DNA of 64,000 nt from a virus, in the IMG/VR virus record IMGVR_UViG_3300009826_000003, positions 2,081 to 66,080 of that record. One strand, given 5' to 3'. The position numbers and the translations under genes were made by a program. This document shows, one piece after another, positions 15,143 through 24,361 of this stretch. The notes below the pieces were generated by a model. The model searched no databases. It was given only the letters and a program-made list of their open reading frames with translations, and was not told where the DNA came from. Within the stretch, counting starts at the first letter, position 1; every line of letters begins with the position of its first letter.

Positions 15143-15218
15143 TCACTTTCCACCCTCTTCCTGTCCTAGTTGGACAACACCAAACAGGTTGTGCGCCAAC
15201 CTGTTTGATGCAATGCAA

Positions 15219-15452
15219 CTAGCCTCGCGCGTTACGCTCAGCTATAGCGCGATCTAGGCACGCTCCGTAATCACCTGGCACTCCGCACCAGTGACAAGGT
15301 GCTGGTTGTGCTAAGCGCTCCGCCTCCGTGCGAAGCTGATTAGCGGTCCAACTGCAATTGCCAGGGAAGGGATAACCGTATTCCTTTCCTAGCTCTTCCA
15401 GCAGGATAGCGGCCTGAATCATACGCTCTGGCAAGGCTTTTCGGTTACTCAT
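15219..15452 (-). CDS. Small hypothetical protein (array gene)
   Basis: 77 aa with C-terminal CxxC; TAG stop is the CTAG of repeat 1. Confidence 0.75.
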   Translation of the reverse strand: MSNRKALPERMIQAAILLEELGKEYGYPFPGNCSWTANQLRTEAERLAQPAPCHWCGVPGDYGACLDRAIAERNARG

Positions 15453-15454
15453 GG

Positions 15455-15706
15455 TTAAACTCCCTTCGAGTAATACCGAATGTTGGTGTGCTCAAACAAT
15501 TGTCGCAAGCCTAACTCCGAAAGTTCAAGAGTTAGAACAAGATTCGCGAACAGGTAGTCTTTGTCATAAAAGACATAAGACGTGTGAATGTCACACTTGG
15601 CCCTATTCACCAGATCGCGATTGATCCACTGAATCATCAACCCTTTGTTGGCATTCCGCGTGAACGGTGGAATGTCTTTAGGGTCAACCCTTTTCACTGT
15701 ATCCAT
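15455..15706 (-). CDS. Small hypothetical protein (array gene)
   Basis: 83 aa, start after repeat 2 RBS. Confidence 0.75.
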   Translation of the reverse strand: MDTVKRVDPKDIPPFTRNANKGLMIQWINRDLVNRAKCDIHTSYVFYDKDYLFANLVLTLELSELGLRQLFEHTNIRYYSKGV

Positions 15707-15780
15707 GATTCCATCCTCTCTTTCTGTCCCTAGTGGACAACGCCAAACCTGTTGGCTAGCAACAGGTTTGACGCAATCAA

Positions 15781-16065
15781 CTAGCGAACCGCATTCGCAG
15801 CTTTGAATTCGACTGCGTTGTTTGCGATTTCGTTTGCCTTCTGGTGTAAGTCATCCGGCAAACGTTGGCCCATCCGACCAAGCGCGGAAACTGCGAGGTC
15901 AATTGCACCTCTTAGCTTCCATCCAGACTGGCGAACTATGGCCTGTGGAGCGTAACTAGGCCGGTAATGAACCATGTTGTTACTGACACGATTGGCCAGC
16001 GCATTCAGTTCTGCCACAATAACTTTCGCGGCCTGCTCTTCGAATCCTTCTGGAATGTATACCAT
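15781..16065 (-). CDS. Small hypothetical protein (array gene)
   Basis: 94 aa, bounded exactly by repeats 2 and 3. Confidence 0.8.
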   Translation of the reverse strand: MVYIPEGFEEQAAKVIVAELNALANRVSNNMVHYRPSYAPQAIVRQSGWKLRGAIDLAVSALGRMGQRLPDDLHQKANEIANNAVEFKAANAVR

Positions 16066-16139
16066 TTTTCCATCCTCTTTTCTTGTCCTTAGCGGACAAC
16101 ACCAAACCCCTTGACTAGCAAGGGGTTTGATGCACTCAG

Positions 16140-16343
16140 CTAAGAACTAGCTTCACCTTCGGGCGAAACGCCAACGTACAGAGTCCTTTTCAGTGGTCCC
16201 TGTCCGCTGTGGTCGATTCCTCCGACCCAACCGGCAACCCAACCTTTCGGAAGGTCGAATGCCAAGTTGTAATCGCTTTCGCGAAATGCGACTTTGTAAC
16301 TGGCACAAAGCTTTTGGAGCGTTTCACGCTGTTTCGGATTCAT
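16140..16343 (-). CDS. Small hypothetical protein (array gene)
   Basis: MNPKQRETLQ..., 67 aa; GGAGG RBS and ATGA overlap; stop in repeat 3. Confidence 0.75.
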   Translation of the reverse strand: MNPKQRETLQKLCASYKVAFRESDYNLAFDLPKGWVAGWVGGIDHSGQGPLKRTLYVGVSPEGEASS

Positions 16344-16543
16344 ACCGATTTCACCTCCGCCTGTCCCAAACCACAAGCGCGCAAGAACCTTTCGCGGTCA
16401 AAGCGCGGATTGTCTGATTTGAATTTAGCGGCCAGTTGGTTAGCGATTGCTTCAATGGCTTTATTTGAGTCACTGAATTTCAAATCGCTTGCCAGCTTTA
16501 TGATTTGAGCAATTTGCTCGAAATCCCTTCTGGTAACTGCCAT
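16340..16543 (-). CDS. Small hypothetical protein (array gene)
   Basis: MAVTRRDFEQIA...DNPRFDRERFLRACG, 67 aa, after repeat 4 RBS. Confidence 0.8.
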   Translation of the reverse strand: MAVTRRDFEQIAQIIKLASDLKFSDSNKAIEAIANQLAAKFKSDNPRFDRERFLRACGLGQAEVKSV

Positions 16544-16632
16544 TTCAATCCATCCTCTCTTTCTGTCCCTAGTGGACAAGACGAAAACCCTTGCGAAACA
16601 AGGGTTTTCATCCAATCAACTAGTGATTTGTG

Positions 16633-16881
16633 TTAGCGGCAATCGTCCCGCAAAACAGGGTTGACATCAGGGACAAGTGACACAACGATTTTCGTTTCGA
16701 CGCGAAAACCTTTGGCCTTCACCTGTTCTAGATGATGAACCGCATTGCGCAAGTGTAATGCACTGGCGCGCTGGCGATCTCGAACATGAGTGAATCCTTC
16801 ACTCTCTGCCCTGTCCGCTTCGCAATCCAAAGCAACCGACAAATCGGTTGCGTTGATGTCGAATGCATATTGAACACTCAT
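16633..16881 (-). CDS. Small hypothetical protein (array gene)
   Basis: MSVQYAFD..., 82 aa, after repeat 5 RBS. Confidence 0.75.
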   Translation of the reverse strand: MSVQYAFDINATDLSVALDCEADRAESEGFTHVRDRQRASALHLRNAVHHLEQVKAKGFRVETKIVVSLVPDVNPVLRDDCR

Positions 16882-16954
16882 TTTTCCATCCTCTTTTCTT
16901 GTCCTAACGGACAACACGAAAAGCGTTCTGTATGAACGCTTTTCGTGCACTCCG

Positions 16955-17383
16955 TTAGGGAGTTAGTGCGCGATACCGACCCATTGCGACCCTACGCGCG
17001 TAACCCAATTTGATTAGCGTGTAGCATCTTTGGCCAGCAGCACTAGATGAAATATTCAAATGGCGTCCTAGTGCGTTAAGGTGAACGCCCACCTCGCAAT
17101 CATTCTCCGCGAGGTATTCCCAAGCGTCATACTGTGACCTGTTAAGCGCTCCATCGTGCGGAGTATGCACACCAGGCCGCGTACCCTTCGAAATGGGTTG
17201 TAACGCTTGCGGTTTCGGGTCATCCACTTCTAGCGTCACTCTCTGCCTACCCTGAAAAGGGTTGGCCTGTAACGCTATACGCTGCTCAGACTGTAACGCG
17301 CGGATAAAATCCAGCGCAGCTTGAGCTTCACCATTCGAAATATCAAGTGTCACGTCACCTTTGGCGTTGACGGTAACCTTCAA
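16955..17383 (-). CDS. Putative DNA-binding protein with C-terminal winged HTH
   Basis: LNRSQYDAWEYL...LGRHLNISSSAAGQRCYTLIKLGYARR; TTG start after GAAAGGGATGGAATA. Confidence 0.65.
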   Translation of the reverse strand: MKVTVNAKGDVTLDISNGEAQAALDFIRALQSEQRIALQANPFQGRQRVTLEVDDPKPQALQPISKGTRPGVHTPHDGALNRSQYDAWEYLAENDCEVGVHLNALGRHLNISSSAAGQRCYTLIKLGYARRVAMGRYRALTP

Positions 17384-17534
17384 TATTCCATCCCTTTCTA
17401 TCTGAAATCTGACCATCAGCATTGATGGCCTGTCCTAGCGGACAAGACCAAACCCCTTGACTAGCAAGGGGTTTGATCCAGAGCGCTAGGCTCTTACCCT
17501 GTCGATTCCTCAAATCGACTGTAGGAGAACAACT

Positions 17535-18677
17535 TTAGGACTTGGCCGCTACTAGCTCAGGCCGGTCTAGAACCTTCGCCAGTGCAATCACGCTCTTTTG
17601 GTCAACCTCTCCAAACTGACCGCGAATTGCCTTATCCAAGTTACGCTCCACACGATTACCCTTTACCGTCCGGTAGTGAGTTTCGTATGTGTTGAGCGCT
17701 TGCACTACACCTAGAGCAGTACCACGCCATTGTGCCGACATTGGATCACGATGGTAAGTGTGGTTAAGCACTTCCCTTTTGTTTTCCGCAATCGACATTT
17801 TGCGCTTGGTTGTCTCTGGGTCTTTAGCGTCGGGCATAGGGAAGATTTCATTCATCACCTTTACCCATTGCTGCGTAGTGACCGGAATAGATGCCAATTC
17901 GTGTAGCTCATCCATCATGGCATCGTTCGTCTGGTGAATGATCCTTAGCGCTTGCCGCACGTCTTTAATCCTGTTGTAATCCAAGGACTTTGACGTGTGA
18001 CGTGCCTTGTAAATTCGACCTGACGATTCCGCCTGGTGAAGCGCTGCGTTTCTGGTGTTATCGCAAACAACGTAAAGCGTTTGACCGCTGAAAGTTGTTG
18101 GGATAGAACCATCTAACGAAGTGCTTCCCATGATGTATGGCCAGAATTCCGCGCCTGTGGTCTCATCGTGCGAAGTCTCCGGTAAGGCTACTTGCACGAA
18201 AGCTTGAGCACCATTGCGAAGCAAACCAGCGCCAAGGATGGTCAGAGTATCGCCAATTACGTTGGCCTGCAATTGCATTAGCCATCTTTCGTAATTGTGA
18301 ATGCGGTACTCATCGCTGTGGTGGCCTAGCTCAAGGTGGTTGTCACTTCTAACAACACCTTGCATGTCAGGTACCACAACGATTTTGACCGGCTGACCTT
18401 GCTTGAAGTCTTCACCTCCAAGCGAAAGGTCTTGTGGCAGAAAGAAATTCGCATCCTTTCGTTCACAAGGCACCAGGTTTGCCGTAGGAACGGACATTGG
18501 CGTCCAAGGGAACAGACGCTCTTTAACCGTTTTGTAGGGTATTGGCCCTTCAAAGTGGTTGGACGGCAACCCAAGCCGCTCGCGCAGCTCTGGGTTATCG
18601 TGCCATGCCTTCGGTCGATTCGCGCAGTTCCCAACCAAGATAAACTCATTGAGCCACCTTGAGGTTTCCTGTGACAT
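17535..18677 (-). CDS. DUF932 / TIGR03299-like phage-plasmid protein
   Basis: VVRSD...Y.IHNY, AGLLRNGAQAFVQV, STSLDGS...VVCDNT...HT pattern. Start moved to ATG 18677. Confidence 0.7.
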   Translation of the reverse strand: MSQETSRWLNEFILVGNCANRPKAWHDNPELRERLGLPSNHFEGPIPYKTVKERLFPWTPMSVPTANLVPCERKDANFFLPQDLSLGGEDFKQGQPVKIVVVPDMQGVVRSDNHLELGHHSDEYRIHNYERWLMQLQANVIGDTLTILGAGLLRNGAQAFVQVALPETSHDETTGAEFWPYIMGSTSLDGSIPTTFSGQTLYVVCDNTRNAALHQAESSGRIYKARHTSKSLDYNRIKDVRQALRIIHQTNDAMMDELHELASIPVTTQQWVKVMNEIFPMPDAKDPETTKRKMSIAENKREVLNHTYHRDPMSAQWRGTALGVVQALNTYETHYRTVKGNRVERNLDKAIRGQFGEVDQKSVIALAKVLDRPELVAAKS

Positions 18678-18754
18678 ATCGTTATTCTCCAATCTATCTG
18701 TGCGCCAATGGAATTGGCGACTTTTCACGCGAACCGTGTAAGTGGCCGCGCTAG

Positions 18755-18930
18755 TGGCTGTAGCCAGATTCGAACTGGCCCAAGGCTTTTCGGCTCTTGT
18801 TCCTAATCCGCTCTTATTTGGCTTCTAAGCCTTCGGAGCGTCTGTCAGGTACTAAGACCCTTGGACGCTCCGAAAACGGCTCAGAAGCGCTCTCAGGCCG
18901 GTCTAATGGCCTGTTTGGAGCGGTACAGCC
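18755..18930 (-). ncRNA. 176-nt tRNA-like RNA with large structured insertion
   Basis: Acceptor GGCTGTA/TACAGCC, T-arm GCCAG-TTCGAAT-CTGGC, nested internal helices; fills the intergenic gap. Confidence 0.8.
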
Positions 18931-18939
18931 AGCAGCAGG

Positions 18940-19428
18940 TTACTGCTGCATGTTGAGATGACCTTTGGCAAGACGGAGAAGCGAATTGTATTCATCCCGC
19001 TTCTCTTTGGGAACTTCAATGTAGTTACCCATACCAACCACGAAACGCCAAAGACCTTCCAGCACAACAACTTTCTCTCTAGCTTTCATTTTCGGATAGC
19101 TAGGTGAACGGTTGTATGAACGTCGCGCGAAGCGCTCCGTTTCTTTGGCTTCCGCTATCACCAGGTCAATCAGTTGCCTTCTGCTGTAGGACTTTTCGAG
19201 TCCCTTAGCAATGTGGTTGTCCCACAAGGCTTTCCATGCTTCGATGTCATCGCTGTTCCAGAAAGAGCGATTCTGAAACTCGAATTTCGCAGGGGGAGTA
19301 ACGATTTCGTCGTTTTTCCGCCACGAATCAATGATGACGGCATCTGCGCCGATTGCGCGCGAGATGTCATAAATCGAAAGCATGACAACTTCCTTACCTG
19401 TTGACAGGTCAGTGATTTTCTCTGCCAT
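18940..19428 (-). CDS. Hypothetical protein, possible N-terminal HTH (array gene)
   Basis: 162 aa, LSIYDISRAIGADAVIIDSWR; start after repeat 7 RBS. Confidence 0.7.
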   Translation of the reverse strand: MAEKITDLSTGKEVVMLSIYDISRAIGADAVIIDSWRKNDEIVTPPAKFEFQNRSFWNSDDIEAWKALWDNHIAKGLEKSYSRRQLIDLVIAEAKETERFARRSYNRSPSYPKMKAREKVVVLEGLWRFVVGMGNYIEVPKEKRDEYNSLLRLAKGHLNMQQ

Positions 19429-19512
19429 GTTTCCATCCCTTTCTGTCCCTAGATCGTTCGTCTAGCGGACAACACCAAAAGCGTTAGCCTGTAACGCTTT
19501 TGATGCAATCAG

Positions 19513-19692
19513 CTAGCTCACAAGCTGCTCAGCAGCTTCTATGGCTTGCTTCTTATTGGCGTAAGAGCCATTCATCAACTGGTGGCCCTTCCAGATACGC
19601 CAGAACTTTTTAGGCGATTGCATAACGTGGATGTCGTGCTTATCGTCATGCATTCCGCCCCAATGGTTTTCACGCCAAACGATGTTACTCAT
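19513..19692 (-). CDS. 59-aa protein missed by ORF track
   Basis: MSNIVWRENHWGG...AIEAAEQLVS; ATGA overlap; stop is the CTAG of repeat 7. Confidence 0.75.
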   Translation of the reverse strand: MSNIVWRENHWGGMHDDKHDIHVMQSPKKFWRIWKGHQLMNGSYANKKQAIEAAEQLVS

Positions 19693-19895
19693 TTTTGCGA
19701 TCCTTCCTCTTGTATCTGCTCCAAGAGACCGCGCAGGCGCGAATTCTCTTCTTGCAGAGCGGAAATGGATTCAGCACGTTCTTTCGCCCAAACGTGTTGC
19801 ATCACTTCCATTTCGTCTGGGTCGCTTGGGTCGAAATCAACACCAGGTACCCAACCGTCACCTTGGACATATTGCCCATCTTCCAGATACGGCAT
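19689..19895 (-). CDS. Small acidic hypothetical protein (array gene)
   Basis: MPYLEDGQ..., 68 aa, after repeat 8 RBS. Confidence 0.75.
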   Translation of the reverse strand: MPYLEDGQYVQGDGWVPGVDFDPSDPDEMEVMQHVWAKERAESISALQEENSRLRGLLEQIQEEGSQK

Positions 19896-19968
19896 TTTTC
19901 CATCCTCTCTTTCTGTCCTAGCGGACAAGGCCAGATACGTTGGCGCGCAACGTATCTCGCCCAATGCG

Positions 19969-20202
19969 CTAGACCGGGAGAAGGTCTTGGTATTCGTTAT
20001 GGTTCAATTCACCAAAAACGAAGCGCTGCATGGCTTTTGCAACGTCTATAGGCTTTCCGCCCATTGGAACGTCGCGACCATGCCCAAGCTCCCAACCATA
20101 ACCAGGCTGTTTGTACCAGATTTGGACGCGACCCTGACTCTCTAGGTGCATCACCTGGTAACGCCAACCTTCGGCATTCTTGAATTCAAGAAGTAGCCTC
20201 AT
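19969..20202 (-). CDS. Small hypothetical protein (array gene)
   Basis: MRLLLEFK..., 77 aa; RBS GAAGGGGATGGAAACC; stop in repeat 8. Confidence 0.75.
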   Translation of the reverse strand: MRLLLEFKNAEGWRYQVMHLESQGRVQIWYKQPGYGWELGHGRDVPMGGKPIDVAKAMQRFVFGELNHNEYQDLLPV

Positions 20203-20294
20203 GGTTTCCATCCCCTTCCAGTGATCCAATTTGAATCACCAACTAGGCCAAGGGATTTCGGTTGTGTAAGCTCGAAATCCCTTGGCAACATTGG

Positions 20295-20453
20295 TTATTC
20301 AACATCATCTTGATGCAGAAGGCGAATATCGTTGCTGTAGACCTTGATTGCTGGAAATTGTCCATTGTCGCCAGCATCCCAAAGAGCAATGTATTCGATA
20401 CCGTCGAACTTGATACGGTCACCTTCACGCACTTTCATTGCAAGTGCCATCAT
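20295..20453 (-). CDS. Small hypothetical protein (array gene)
   Basis: MMALAMKVREGDRI..., 52 aa, after repeat 9 RBS. Confidence 0.7.
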   Translation of the reverse strand: MMALAMKVREGDRIKFDGIEYIALWDAGDNGQFPAIKVYSNDIRLLHQDDVE

Positions 20454-20526
20454 GTTTTCCACCCTCTTTCTTGTCCTAGCGGACAACGCGAAACCCTAAC
20501 GCAGAGTTAGGGTTTCACGCAATCAG

Positions 20527-20760
20527 CTAGAAATCGTTTCTAGCGCAGGCGATTTCGTAACCTTCCATGTCTCCGATTTCGTCATCGTAGACAGAAGGGT
20601 TATCGCGCCAGTTGTCGCGCAACCGCTGACCAAAAGCGTTGTATTGCGCGTTGCACTCAGGGCAGGAAACGTCACCCTGACCACGGTACCGGGAAACTAT
20701 TGCGCCGCAAGCGCATTCCCATTCCGAATGTCCATCATCGAACCTCTTGACGTTGGCCAT
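20527..20760 (-). CDS. Small zinc-ribbon protein (array gene)
   Basis: CACG...CPECNAQYNAFGQRLR, 77 aa, bounded exactly by repeats 9 and 10. Confidence 0.8.
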   Translation of the reverse strand: MANVKRFDDGHSEWECACGAIVSRYRGQGDVSCPECNAQYNAFGQRLRDNWRDNPSVYDDEIGDMEGYEIACARNDF

Positions 20761-20840
20761 TTTTCCATCCTCTCTTTCTGTCCTAGCGGACAACCCCAAA
20801 CCCCTTCTCGCGGAAGGGGTTTCGGGCAATGCGCTAGGCA

Positions 20841-21437
20841 TTACGCGGCAACGAAGGCATCGCCAACCTGCGCCAGATGAATTTGCTTGTTAGCTTCCAT
20901 CTGGAATTCGCGCAGGCGACCCTTGCCGACGTGCGCCAGGCGCATAGGGATAAGAGCAATTCCCTTGAGCACCTTGGCATTCCGCCGCGCTTCGAAAAGT
21001 TCGTTGTCAATCACCATGAGGTCACCGGCAACAACGTTCTTAGCTGCTTTCCGAAGGTTCATTTTTCCATCTCCTTTTGGTTGGTGGTTGCGACGTTGTG
21101 CCACAACCTTTTTCGGCTCAGCCTTCTTAGGCTGTTCCTTTGGCTCTTCCTTCTCTAGACCCTTGACGCATGGGAAAATGTCTACGTCAGAACCGTATTG
21201 CTTGCGTCCTTCCTCATCGCTCAAATCCCAATCGCTGTAGTGATCGCTGTAAATAGCGTCCACAATTTCATCAGCGTTTTTGGCATCCAAGATCCAAGGT
21301 GCTCCGCAGGCGCGATCTTCAAGCACTGCCCAATGGTATTTGGGTTGCTTGATGTCTCGACAGTCTGGCGCGTGGACGTGCATTGCGCCGCGACCGAAGT
21401 TGATTCCGTTGGGGCCAAGTATCCGAACCTTAACCAT
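20841..21437 (-). CDS. Hypothetical two-domain protein with internal in-frame start
   Basis: MVKVRILG..., 198 aa; internal GGAGATGGAAAA-ATG at 21062. Confidence 0.75.
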   Translation of the reverse strand: MVKVRILGPNGINFGRGAMHVHAPDCRDIKQPKYHWAVLEDRACGAPWILDAKNADEIVDAIYSDHYSDWDLSDEEGRKQYGSDVDIFPCVKGLEKEEPKEQPKKAEPKKVVAQRRNHQPKGDGKMNLRKAAKNVVAGDLMVIDNELFEARRNAKVLKGIALIPMRLAHVGKGRLREFQMEANKQIHLAQVGDAFVAA

Positions 21438-21564
21438 TTTTCCATCCCCTATCTTGTCCACTGTCTAGCGGACAACGCCAGAAGCGTTGATTACCAACGC
21501 TTCTCGCGCAATCAGCTAGCTTCGAATCATCACCAGGCCAGCGTAACCAAGGCCGCGATTCTCA

Positions 21565-21663
21565 TTAATCGTCATGGCACCTGCACAGGCACCACTCATG
21601 CGTGCAGTTCTCATGCCCGTTCAATTCACAGACACGCTGGTCAAACTCCCGTTGTTCGTTCAT
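21565..21663 (-). CDS. 32-aa Cys/His-rich peptide
   Basis: MNEQREFDQRVCELNGHENCTHEWCLCRCHDD, directly after repeat 12 RBS. Confidence 0.55.
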   Translation of the reverse strand: MNEQREFDQRVCELNGHENCTHEWCLCRCHDD

Positions 21664-21739
21664 TTTTCCATCCCCTATCTTGTCTGCTGTTCTAGCGGAC
21701 AACGCCGAAATCGTTACCGTGGTAACGATTTCCGCGCAA

Positions 21740-21985
21740 TCAGCTAAACATTTCCTTCTCTAGTTGGAACCTGTCATCTTCGGCTTGCTGCGCCAGCGCC
21801 AATCGGAGTACCGATTTCCAGTTAGCGATTCTTGCTGCCTCTTGCATGTAAGAGCCGCAACCGTGACCGTGCATTTTCTCCGAAAGTGCTTCCAGCACAA
21901 GCATTTTGCTTACCCTCTGTTCGTTCTTTCGAGCGTTAACAGCGATAAAGTTTGCCATGACCTTAGCAGCTTCCATCTTTTTCAT
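21740..21985 (-). CDS. Small hypothetical protein (first array gene)
   Basis: 81 aa, RBS GGGGATGGAAAA; TGA stop inside repeat 12. Confidence 0.75.
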   Translation of the reverse strand: MKKMEAAKVMANFIAVNARKNEQRVSKMLVLEALSEKMHGHGCGSYMQEAARIANWKSVLRLALAQQAEDDRFQLEKEMFS

Positions 21986-22040: not shown

Positions 22041-22119
22041 GAGCCAAGGCCGGAATCGAACCGGCACAGGTAGGGCGATCATCTTCGCGGTACCTGCTTT
22101 CATCAGCGGCCACCAGGCT
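22041..22119 (-). ncRNA. 79-nt tRNA-like RNA with aberrant D and anticodon arms
   Basis: Acceptor AGCCTGG/CTTGGCT (one mismatch), T-arm GCCGG-TTCGATT-CCGGC, central helix CAGGTA/TACCTG. Confidence 0.65.
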
Positions 22120-22552: not shown

Positions 22553-23414
22553 ATCGGCGTTAATCCCTTGTGGCAGAACACAATTGGACGATACTGAAAG
22601 CCTTACGGTAAGCCTCACTGTAATCCTTACCGAAAGCCTATCCCCAGAAGTGCCAGGTCGCGCACCTAGCGCGCGAAATCCCTTGGCGCGTAAGGGTTTA
22701 ACGCTCTATATCTGGCCTGCGCTGGCTCTTCCTGGTCGAATACCCTGACCAGGGAAAACGTCTGAAATGGCCTGTGGCGCGCGAAAATAACCCTCCTGGT
22801 ACGTCCGTTCATGGGAGCGCTGAAAACGGCTCAGAATCGCTCTGAGCGCCAGCAATGGCCCTTCTAGCGTTTGGCGCTGTGAATCAAGCGCTTTGAGCGT
22901 TTCCGGCCGGAAATCGCTTGGGAAATCGGCTGATTCGCCCTCTAACGCTGCTAGACCTCGCACGGGACCAGAGCCACCAGCAGCGCGGAAACTTCGCCTG
23001 GCGTGGCGCTGAGAAGGGTGTAAGGTGGCCTGCATGGTGGCAGGCTAGCAGGTGGTCCCGACAGGGTATCTCCGCCTGGTCAGAGCACTTGTCTAGACTG
23101 TCTAAGTAAATTGGTCGGTGGTCTGTGGTCAGACCTCGCGCGTAGGGTCGAAGCAAGCGAAAACCCTTGGGAAATCAAGGCTTTCGCAAAAGGGTTGGTA
23201 TATAAGGGATTAACGCAAGAGCCATCTAAATCCAGTTGGTGTCTAAGTTGGCCAATCTGGATGGTGGGCATTTTGCCCAATCTAAACGTTAATCCCTTAT
23301 ATACCAGGTGATTTGACCTCTGACCTCTGTTATGGTAGCGTCTGTATATCCCCTGCTCAGGGGACGGATTCTAGCGAATCCTGTTCTTACACATAGAGAA
23401 TAGAGGAAATCACG

Positions 23415-24296: not shown

Positions 24297-24361
24297 GCCG
24301 TTCCCTGGTGGCGCGCTACCCTGCTGTGGTAGCGTGAAAGGTTCAAATCCCTTGAGCGGCA
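24297..24361 (+). ncRNA. 65-nt D-armless tRNA-like RNA, anticodon-position GCT (Ser)
   Basis: Acceptor GCCGTTC/GAGCGGC, 9-bp stem with 7-nt loop CTGCTGT, T-arm AAAGG-TTCAAAT-CCCTT. Confidence 0.65.

Follow-up and report, generated by a model that had tools for sequence, protein, structure and literature searches.

A tRNA-like intergenic element with an expanded central domain upstream of a DUF932 gene in an actinophage-type genome: a putative transcript-processing signal

Gene organization around the element

The window (the whole stretch of DNA analyzed, 64 kb) is part of a complete IMG/VR phage genome of 71,237 bp with direct terminal repeats, and its gene content was that of a siphovirus of the actinophage type: minor tail proteins, family A polymerase, primase, and portal. 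The region derives from an uncultured phage found in termite-gut metagenomes. A search of sequencing runs listed no RNA run with the sequence, while four termite-gut DNA runs carried the region with 0 differences, and therefore provided no natural variants of the inserted domain described below.

The element that was the focus of this study is located in a leftward array of small genes, between a 162-aa ORF with no assigned function (18940-19428, minus strand) and a DUF932/TIGR03299 gene (17535-18677, minus strand; 380 aa from the ATG at 18677; Pfam, 3.7e-28; PHROG 1221, 7e-95; TIGR03299, 1.7e-53). A homologue of the 162-aa gene was found downstream of the DUF932 gene in related phages, unlike in the window, indicating that the RNA travels with the start region of DUF932, and not with the 162-aa gene. 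Since no promoter-like or terminator-like sites beyond chance were detected in the gap, the element is expected to be read through within the operon RNA. The phage genome encoded neither a CCA-adding enzyme nor SmpB, and no tyrosine integrase was found; lacking a CCA-adding enzyme of the phage's own, the fold must address host enzymes. Ro60/TROVE had no match across the 71-kb phage genome, the only genome covered by this search; a host gene is possible.

The DUF932/TIGR03299 protein (17535-18677, minus strand) gave a confident AlphaFold model (pLDDT 86). A comparison of this model with the PDB by Foldseek yielded no match at E ≤ 0.001, and the best Z value against all PDB representatives (VIA-align) was 5.4, confined to the helical tail and with no hint of RNA binding.

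Structure of the 176-nt element

The element (minus strand, 18930-18755; 176 nt) begins 9 nt past the upstream stop codon TAA (18942-18940), as stated in an initial annotation made from the sequence. A 7-bp hairpin that contains this stop codon (GCAGCAG-UAAC-CUGCUGC; 18932-18949, minus strand) is separated from the 5' end by 1 nt (U, position -1), and a hairpin abutting the 5' end was also found in Mycobacterium phages MrMiyagi and Cuke and in the IMG/VR contig L018 (see below). The perfect 7-bp acceptor with A and the canonical T-arm of that annotation were read directly from the minus strand: the acceptor 5' strand GGCUGUA (positions 1-7; 18924-18930) pairs perfectly with UACAGCC (18762-18756), which is followed by the discriminator A (18755; together 18755-18762), and the T-arm is GCCAG-UUCGAAU-CUGGC with G53-C61 (18763-18779). 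The next letters are CUA, and CCA is not encoded. All base pairings given in the initial annotation proved correct. The acceptor stacked on the T-arm amounts to 12 bp, and strict T-arms (5 bp, closing G-C, and loop TTCRANN) occurred twice in the window versus 0.3 expected. Pair 3-70 is C-G, confirming that the alanine determinant of tmRNA is missing; the initial view that the element is not a tmRNA was supported. Among tRNA traits, the 7-bp acceptor with discriminator and the T-arm loop UUCRANN were present; the apical loop of the long arm (see below) has 6 nt, and no 7-nt anticodon loop exists in the element.

When only the 7-bp acceptor and 5-bp T-arm were forced in ViennaRNA, the fold returned the previously proposed branched domain and CGAAAA hairpin. 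In this constrained fold, an inserted domain of 116 nt (positions 8-123; 18808-18923, minus strand) consists of a closing stem (CCGCUC/GAGCGG), a hairpin (CAGGCC/GGCCUG; 18913-18894), and a long two-tier arm (18888-18821), and is followed by a single-stranded linker with GG inside (AUUAGGAA; 18800-18807) and a short bulged hairpin before the T-arm (CAAG-A-GC/CGAAAA/GCCUUG; 18781-18799). The energy was -86.8 kcal/mol, versus -90.0 for the unconstrained minimum free energy (MFE) structure, in which the T-arm was not formed, and -83.1 kcal/mol for a cloverleaf-like alternative with GCUC/GAGC as a D-stem-like helix around a hairpin (3.7 poorer than the closing-stem fold). These energies cannot decide the inner topology. 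The whole element had z = -8.2, with 0 of 200 shuffles equally stable, and the inserted domain alone was fully base-paired (MFE, -62.4 kcal/mol; z = -8.4).

The search for homologues of the 116-nt insert found none, except for the resemblance of about 25 nt to another site in the window (22822-22846, minus strand), which was 92% identical to the insert part at 18872-18896. The surrounding region (22600-23000), upstream of the array promoter, was rich in repeated GCCGTTTTC and GCGATTTCC motifs.

Searches for known RNA families

ARAGORN at default settings detected no tRNA or tmRNA, and no acceptable match was obtained when introns were allowed; the sole call for an intron-containing tRNA (ps90) was spurious, comprising 316 nt, of which 239 are intron, and running into the upstream ORF. 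In the tmRNA mode at 80% of the threshold, the program called 18754-18930 with the tag APKA*. No relevant Rfam family, including tRNA, tmRNA, and Y RNA-like families, was found at the gathering score or at E up to 10. Both searches had been suggested in the initial annotation, and neither provided a confident match to tmRNA, YrlA, or an intron-containing tRNA. Comparison of the region by blastn with 50,697 phage records gave nothing, and an exact copy of the T-arm plus acceptor was absent from 185,579 species' genomes and from IMG/VR. A search of IMG/VR for the locus with a single protein found no close relative, and a profile was needed to find the relatives' loci.

Elements in the same position in related phages

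The nearest DUF932 proteins (50-59% identity) were those of Mycobacterium phages MrMiyagi/Fowlmouth, Cuke, Indlulamithi, and Send513/Papyrus, each of which has an unannotated gap of 149-232 nt upstream of the gene. Alignment of these gaps with the window revealed a common T-arm, acceptor 3' strand, and A-C tail, located 65-93 nt before the start codon; contig L018 also contained a tRNA-like element in this slot. When folded alone, the relatives' elements were 41-98 nt long, with an acceptor of 5-7 bp, a 7-nt GG-containing linker, the T-arm, and the acceptor 3' strand. A central arm was present in five of the six lineages and in locus L009, while Send513 had none, and neither sequence nor shape of the arm was common between lineages. 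The insert in the window was more than twice the size of the central arm of any relative. The domain had initially been described as replacing the D-arm, which was only roughly right: the relatives' arm is single and lies between the GG linker (AAUGGUU, UUGGUA, or AACGGUU), on its 5' side, and the T-arm.

Since a MAFFT alignment including the 176-nt element misplaced the core, a table of pairs was anchored on the T-loop and 3' end. G1-C72, G53-C61, and A73-C74 were invariant in the six lineages, while acceptor pairs 2-6 and T-stem pairs 49-52 showed compensating changes (e.g., GC/CG/AU/CG/CG/UA at pair 2), the acceptor sequence itself not being conserved between lineages. Pair 3-70, C-G in the window, was U-A or C-G in the relatives. 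The T-loop was UUCRANN in all lineages, the acceptor-plus-T stack was always 11-12 bp, and the distance from the T-loop to the acceptor 3' end was always 11-12 nt. The 3' tail was ACCA in Fowlmouth/MrMiyagi and Cuke, ACUA in the window and Indlulamithi, and ACGA in the others. The feature is real, and its core, unlike the insert, has been maintained through compensating changes in five phage lineages besides that of the window. Downstream of the element, the 77-nt DUF932 leader (18678-18754, minus strand) contains a hairpin (GCGCCAAU-UCC-AUUGGCGC) and a ribosome-binding site, as read from the sequence and the relatives' alignment; every relative has a counterpart of this hairpin with a different sequence.

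In L009 (1085-1165), an acceptor-like stem and an 11-bp central hairpin were kept in the DUF932 slot, and the T-arm was replaced by UCCUUGUCCA. No T-arm was found upstream of distant DUF932 genes (metagenomes, Cluster M, L012/L013, and L019-L021), and a general partnership between DUF932 and the RNA is therefore not supported. A dedicated partner RNA of DUF932 was rejected on this ground and because the DUF932 model resembles no solved structure. Beside distant DUF932 genes, on the upstream or downstream side, cloverleaf-looking sequences with the loop CUUAAAA were observed (L024, 2760-2840; L025, 1715-1800; L075, 275-360), which are probably real phage tRNAs.

Mini tRNA-like units in small-gene arrays

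Nearly every gap of the relatives' small-gene array contained one mini tRNA-like unit of 42-50 nt. MrMiyagi, Cuke, Indlulamithi, and Send513 each had 8-10 strict T-arms per 7 kb, on the coding strand only and in successive intergenic gaps, and the gaps with units lay within 711-5970 in L003 (MrMiyagi), 312-6330 in L004 (Cuke), 799-6275 in L005 (Indlulamithi), 128-4250 in L006 (Send513), and 249-3417 in L018. In most gaps, the unit starts 8-9 nt past the stop codon (9 nt for the window element), and the order is the acceptor 5' strand, a linker (AAYGGUUUUCGN), the T-arm, the acceptor 3' strand, A-C-G, and a hairpin of 8-11 bp, followed by ACAACAGAAA, the ribosome-binding site GGAGGATGG, and ATG. 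Most units end in ACGN. Some units in slots other than that of DUF932 have a central arm, which is thus not unique to the DUF932-slot element.

Among 28 armless units, 92.5% of the cells in the 12 proposed pairs were paired, versus 55.8% in shuffles. The covariation score was 0.874, versus 0.184 in shuffles and ≤ 0.18 when the partner was slid by 1-3 columns. A covariance model constructed from the mini units (R1) matched 8-13 sites per genome in five complete genomes, all on the array strand; 50 of 51 matches clustered in the array within 5-8 kb, the sole outlier being at 61.3 kb in Send513. These units were covered by no annotation, ARAGORN call, or Rfam family.

Even with filters off, R1 did not list the window element at E up to 10; the departures of the element from the model are the 116-nt insert and A52-U62. 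It nevertheless has the architecture and slot of a unit: the acceptor, GG linker, T-arm, and A-C tail, on the transcribed strand and between genes. Because the same slot is held by the relatives' elements and mini units fill nearly all gaps, we assign the window element, by architecture and position, to this family of intergenic tRNA mimics as an expanded and the largest member. The initial annotation had proposed a new tRNA-mimic non-coding RNA; a tRNA mimic unclaimed by detectors or Rfam it is, but as an expanded member of a family rather than as a one-off class.

The array of the window itself (15143-21739, minus strand) differed, in that most gaps contained long hairpins closed by UAGC/GCUA, not tRNA-like units; UUGUCC and then GGAUGGAAAA-AUG follow the hairpin. 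These hairpin units could be RNase III-type sites, and their presence in most gaps indicates that tRNA-type cutting is not general in this phage. A scan of the window with R1 gave nothing significant, the best match being a bare T-arm at 22049-22065 (E = 0.41). Three tRNA-like elements are left in the window: 18755-18930, 22042-22119, and 24297-24361. The second (minus strand) has the T-arm GCCGG-UUCGAUU-CCGGC and the acceptor AGCCUGG/CUUGGCU with one U-U, and precedes the first array gene (ATG at 21985) by about 56 nt. The third (plus strand) is D-armless, with a 9-bp stem and a 7-nt loop (CUGCUGU), is called tRNA-Ser(gct) in the mitochondrial mode of ARAGORN, and is located just past a terminator-like hairpin, 29 nt before an ATG. 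UCCUUGUCCA of L009 includes the UUGUCC motif of the hairpin units in the window. The hairpin gaps, together with the L009 slot, suggest that tRNA-like units and plain hairpins are interchangeable boundary signals in this phage group.

Putative role in transcript processing

RNase P, RNase Z, and the CCA-adding enzyme require, as a minimal substrate, no more than the coaxial helix of acceptor and T-arm with the T-loop, G at +1, and A73; a synthetase or the ribosome reads other parts. The 12-bp acceptor/T-arm stack, G1, A73, and C74 are kept by selection across phage genera, as is the GG linker, which may mimic the D-loop contact. Plant-mitochondrial t-elements, reportedly described by Hanic-Joyce in 1990, are the closest known parallel. 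They are tRNA-like folds with a conserved T-arm (GGTTCRANYCC) that act as RNase P/RNase Z signals at mRNA ends; their ends coincide with mRNA ends produced by the two enzymes, and non-templated C and A are added after excision (PMC1920247, Forner et al. 2007). The phage element resembles them in its non-canonical, non-decoding tRNA-like fold with a well-kept T-arm inside a longer transcript at a gene boundary. It differs in belonging to a phage of an actinobacterium-type host, in the 116-nt insert, in that cutting is predicted, and in that the relatives' units stand at almost every gene boundary.

From this parallel, we read the element as a processing module. On balance, it is probably a tRNA-like processing module in a polycistronic early transcript, i.e., the phage counterpart of a t-element, in which the central arm has grown to a branched domain of 116 nt. 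Host RNase P would cut before G1, leaving the upstream mRNA to end in the GCAGCAG/CUGCUGC hairpin, and RNase Z or another 3' activity would cut after A73, freeing a DUF932 mRNA that starts just before the leader hairpin. The 176-nt RNA would be set free, possibly as a stable by-product. The insert would not be required for processing, and may represent neutral growth at a permissive site or an added function. The processing role is deduced from anatomy and context, and an RNase P/Z signal is favored over the other two roles initially suggested (a nuclease decoy and a scaffold) by the comparative context, in which the element is the slot-homologue of the mini units. Several points, however, stand against this reading: about 45 nt suffice for a plain signal, leaving the very stable 116-nt insert unexplained; R1 does not score the element; the T-arm is missing from the unconstrained MFE structure; and distant DUF932 genes lack the element.

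Alternative roles

The exceptional stability of the insert (z = -8.4) and its size, far larger than processing requires, would be accounted for if the element were a stand-alone, trans-acting small RNA, in which the tRNA-like frame is a scaffold for exact excision and stability and the insert is the working part, such as a sponge or decoy that captures a host factor with affinity for tRNA or a defence nuclease, or a platform to which proteins bind. Retention of a central arm in this slot by five of the six lineages and L009, and the encoding of ACCA here in Fowlmouth and Cuke, versus ACGN in most mini units, are consistent with such an RNA. However, the central arms differ between lineages in sequence and shape, occur in other slots too, and are dispensed with in Send513, and neither an Rfam match nor a target or partner was found. 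We consider a trans-acting RNA possible but rather unlikely. The more specific version, a natural tRNA scaffold excised and stabilized through RNase P/Z whose insert is trans-acting cargo, e.g., a decoy for a tRNA-directed defence nuclease or a platform for a protein of host or phage, such as the adjacent DUF932, appears somewhat more doubtful still.

The constant spacing between the element and the DUF932 start (65-93 nt, every lineage) and the association of the RNA with DUF932 while the upstream gene varies are also what a cis-acting 5' cap or leader would show. The transcript would then be cut at the 5' side only, and the attached body would protect the DUF932 mRNA from 5'-end-dependent decay or tune its translation. 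An encoded CCA disfavors cutting by RNase Z, and the two lineages that encode it would fit a 5' cut only. The relatives' units, however, precede many unrelated genes, so that nothing is specific to DUF932, and distant DUF932 genes lack the element; a role as a leader is therefore improbable.

The loss of T-arm units from most slots in the lineage of the window, and of the T-arm in L009 at the DUF932 slot, recalls a former tRNA gene or mini unit that is decaying or persists as a neutral relic, with an insert that arose by duplication and has no present function; the resemblance of about 25 nt of the insert to 22822-22846 hints at copying. The perfect 7-bp acceptor, the perfect canonical T-arm, and the invariant G1 and A73-C74 are, however, unlike decay, and the insert is fully base-paired, making a relic quite improbable.

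Module exchange could be promoted by elements that recur at the boundaries of small mosaic genes, and the element may accordingly be considered as a DNA-level signal, i.e., a recombination boundary for gene-cassette exchange or attP. This is highly unlikely, because all units are on the transcribed strand, the stems covary (including the acceptor 5' strand), the T-loop keeps the RNA consensus, and neither a tyrosine integrase nor an exact copy of the T-arm plus acceptor in 185,579 species' genomes was found; attP was rejected on these grounds, and a copy of a host tRNA is unlikely.

A chargeable tRNA-like RNA or miniature tmRNA entering the ribosome, to which the sub-threshold ARAGORN call and the tmRNA-like order of acceptor, long stem, and T-arm would point, is scarcely credible given the C-G (not G-U) at 3-70, the acceptor sequence varying by lineage, the tag not conserved in relatives, the lack of a default ARAGORN or Rfam match, of SmpB in the phage, and of a 7-nt anticodon loop.

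Relationship to other systems

The tRNA-like domain of tmRNA is nevertheless similar in having an acceptor, a T-arm, a long helix from the position of the D/anticodon arms, and paired 5' and 3' ends. The element differs in length (176 versus about 350 nt) and in the absence of G3-U70, of a conserved tag frame, and of pseudoknots in the folds obtained.

A tRNA-mimicking module within a non-coding RNA is also found in YrlA and other bacterial Y RNAs, which have reportedly been described for mycobacteriophages too. The Ro60-binding stem of Y RNAs is built from their two ends, with the tRNA-like part lying inside, while in the window element the ends form the acceptor stem; this difference in topology, the lack of an Rfam match, and the lack of a Ro60/TROVE gene in the phage led us to reject this identity.

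In mitochondrial tRNA punctuation, tRNAs between mRNAs are excised by RNase P and RNase Z. The phage units are similarly tRNA-shaped and placed between the reading frames of one long transcript, but are not decoding tRNAs and have no anticodon arms.

The SAS/ESAS repeats of Cluster K mycobacteriophages are motifs linked to the start codons of many small genes, with an upstream inverted repeat and no assigned role (PMC3203893). The hairpin plus GGATGG-ATG part of the mini units looks analogous to them, as do the hairpin units in the window; however, SAS/ESAS were not described as tRNA-like, and in the mini units the hairpin is preceded by an additional T-arm/acceptor unit.

The element is probably a tRNA-mimic processing signal in a new, enlarged form. 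A literature search found no description of tRNA-shaped units steering RNase P/RNase Z cuts in phage messages. If the processing reading is true, actinophages use the logic of mitochondrial tRNA punctuation through host RNase P and RNase Z, tRNA-processing enzymes would be tied to phage gene expression in a way open to testing, and the expanded copy would indicate that such units accept large inserts, like engineered tRNA scaffolds. Under this reading, the long unannotated gaps in the well-studied genomes of Fowlmouth, Cuke, Indlulamithi, and Send513 would also be explained, and some gene starts would need correction. The annotated starts of MrMiyagi gene 55 and Cuke genes 43 and 52 overlap a mini unit, and were probably called too far upstream; one further mini unit lies inside Cuke gene 44.
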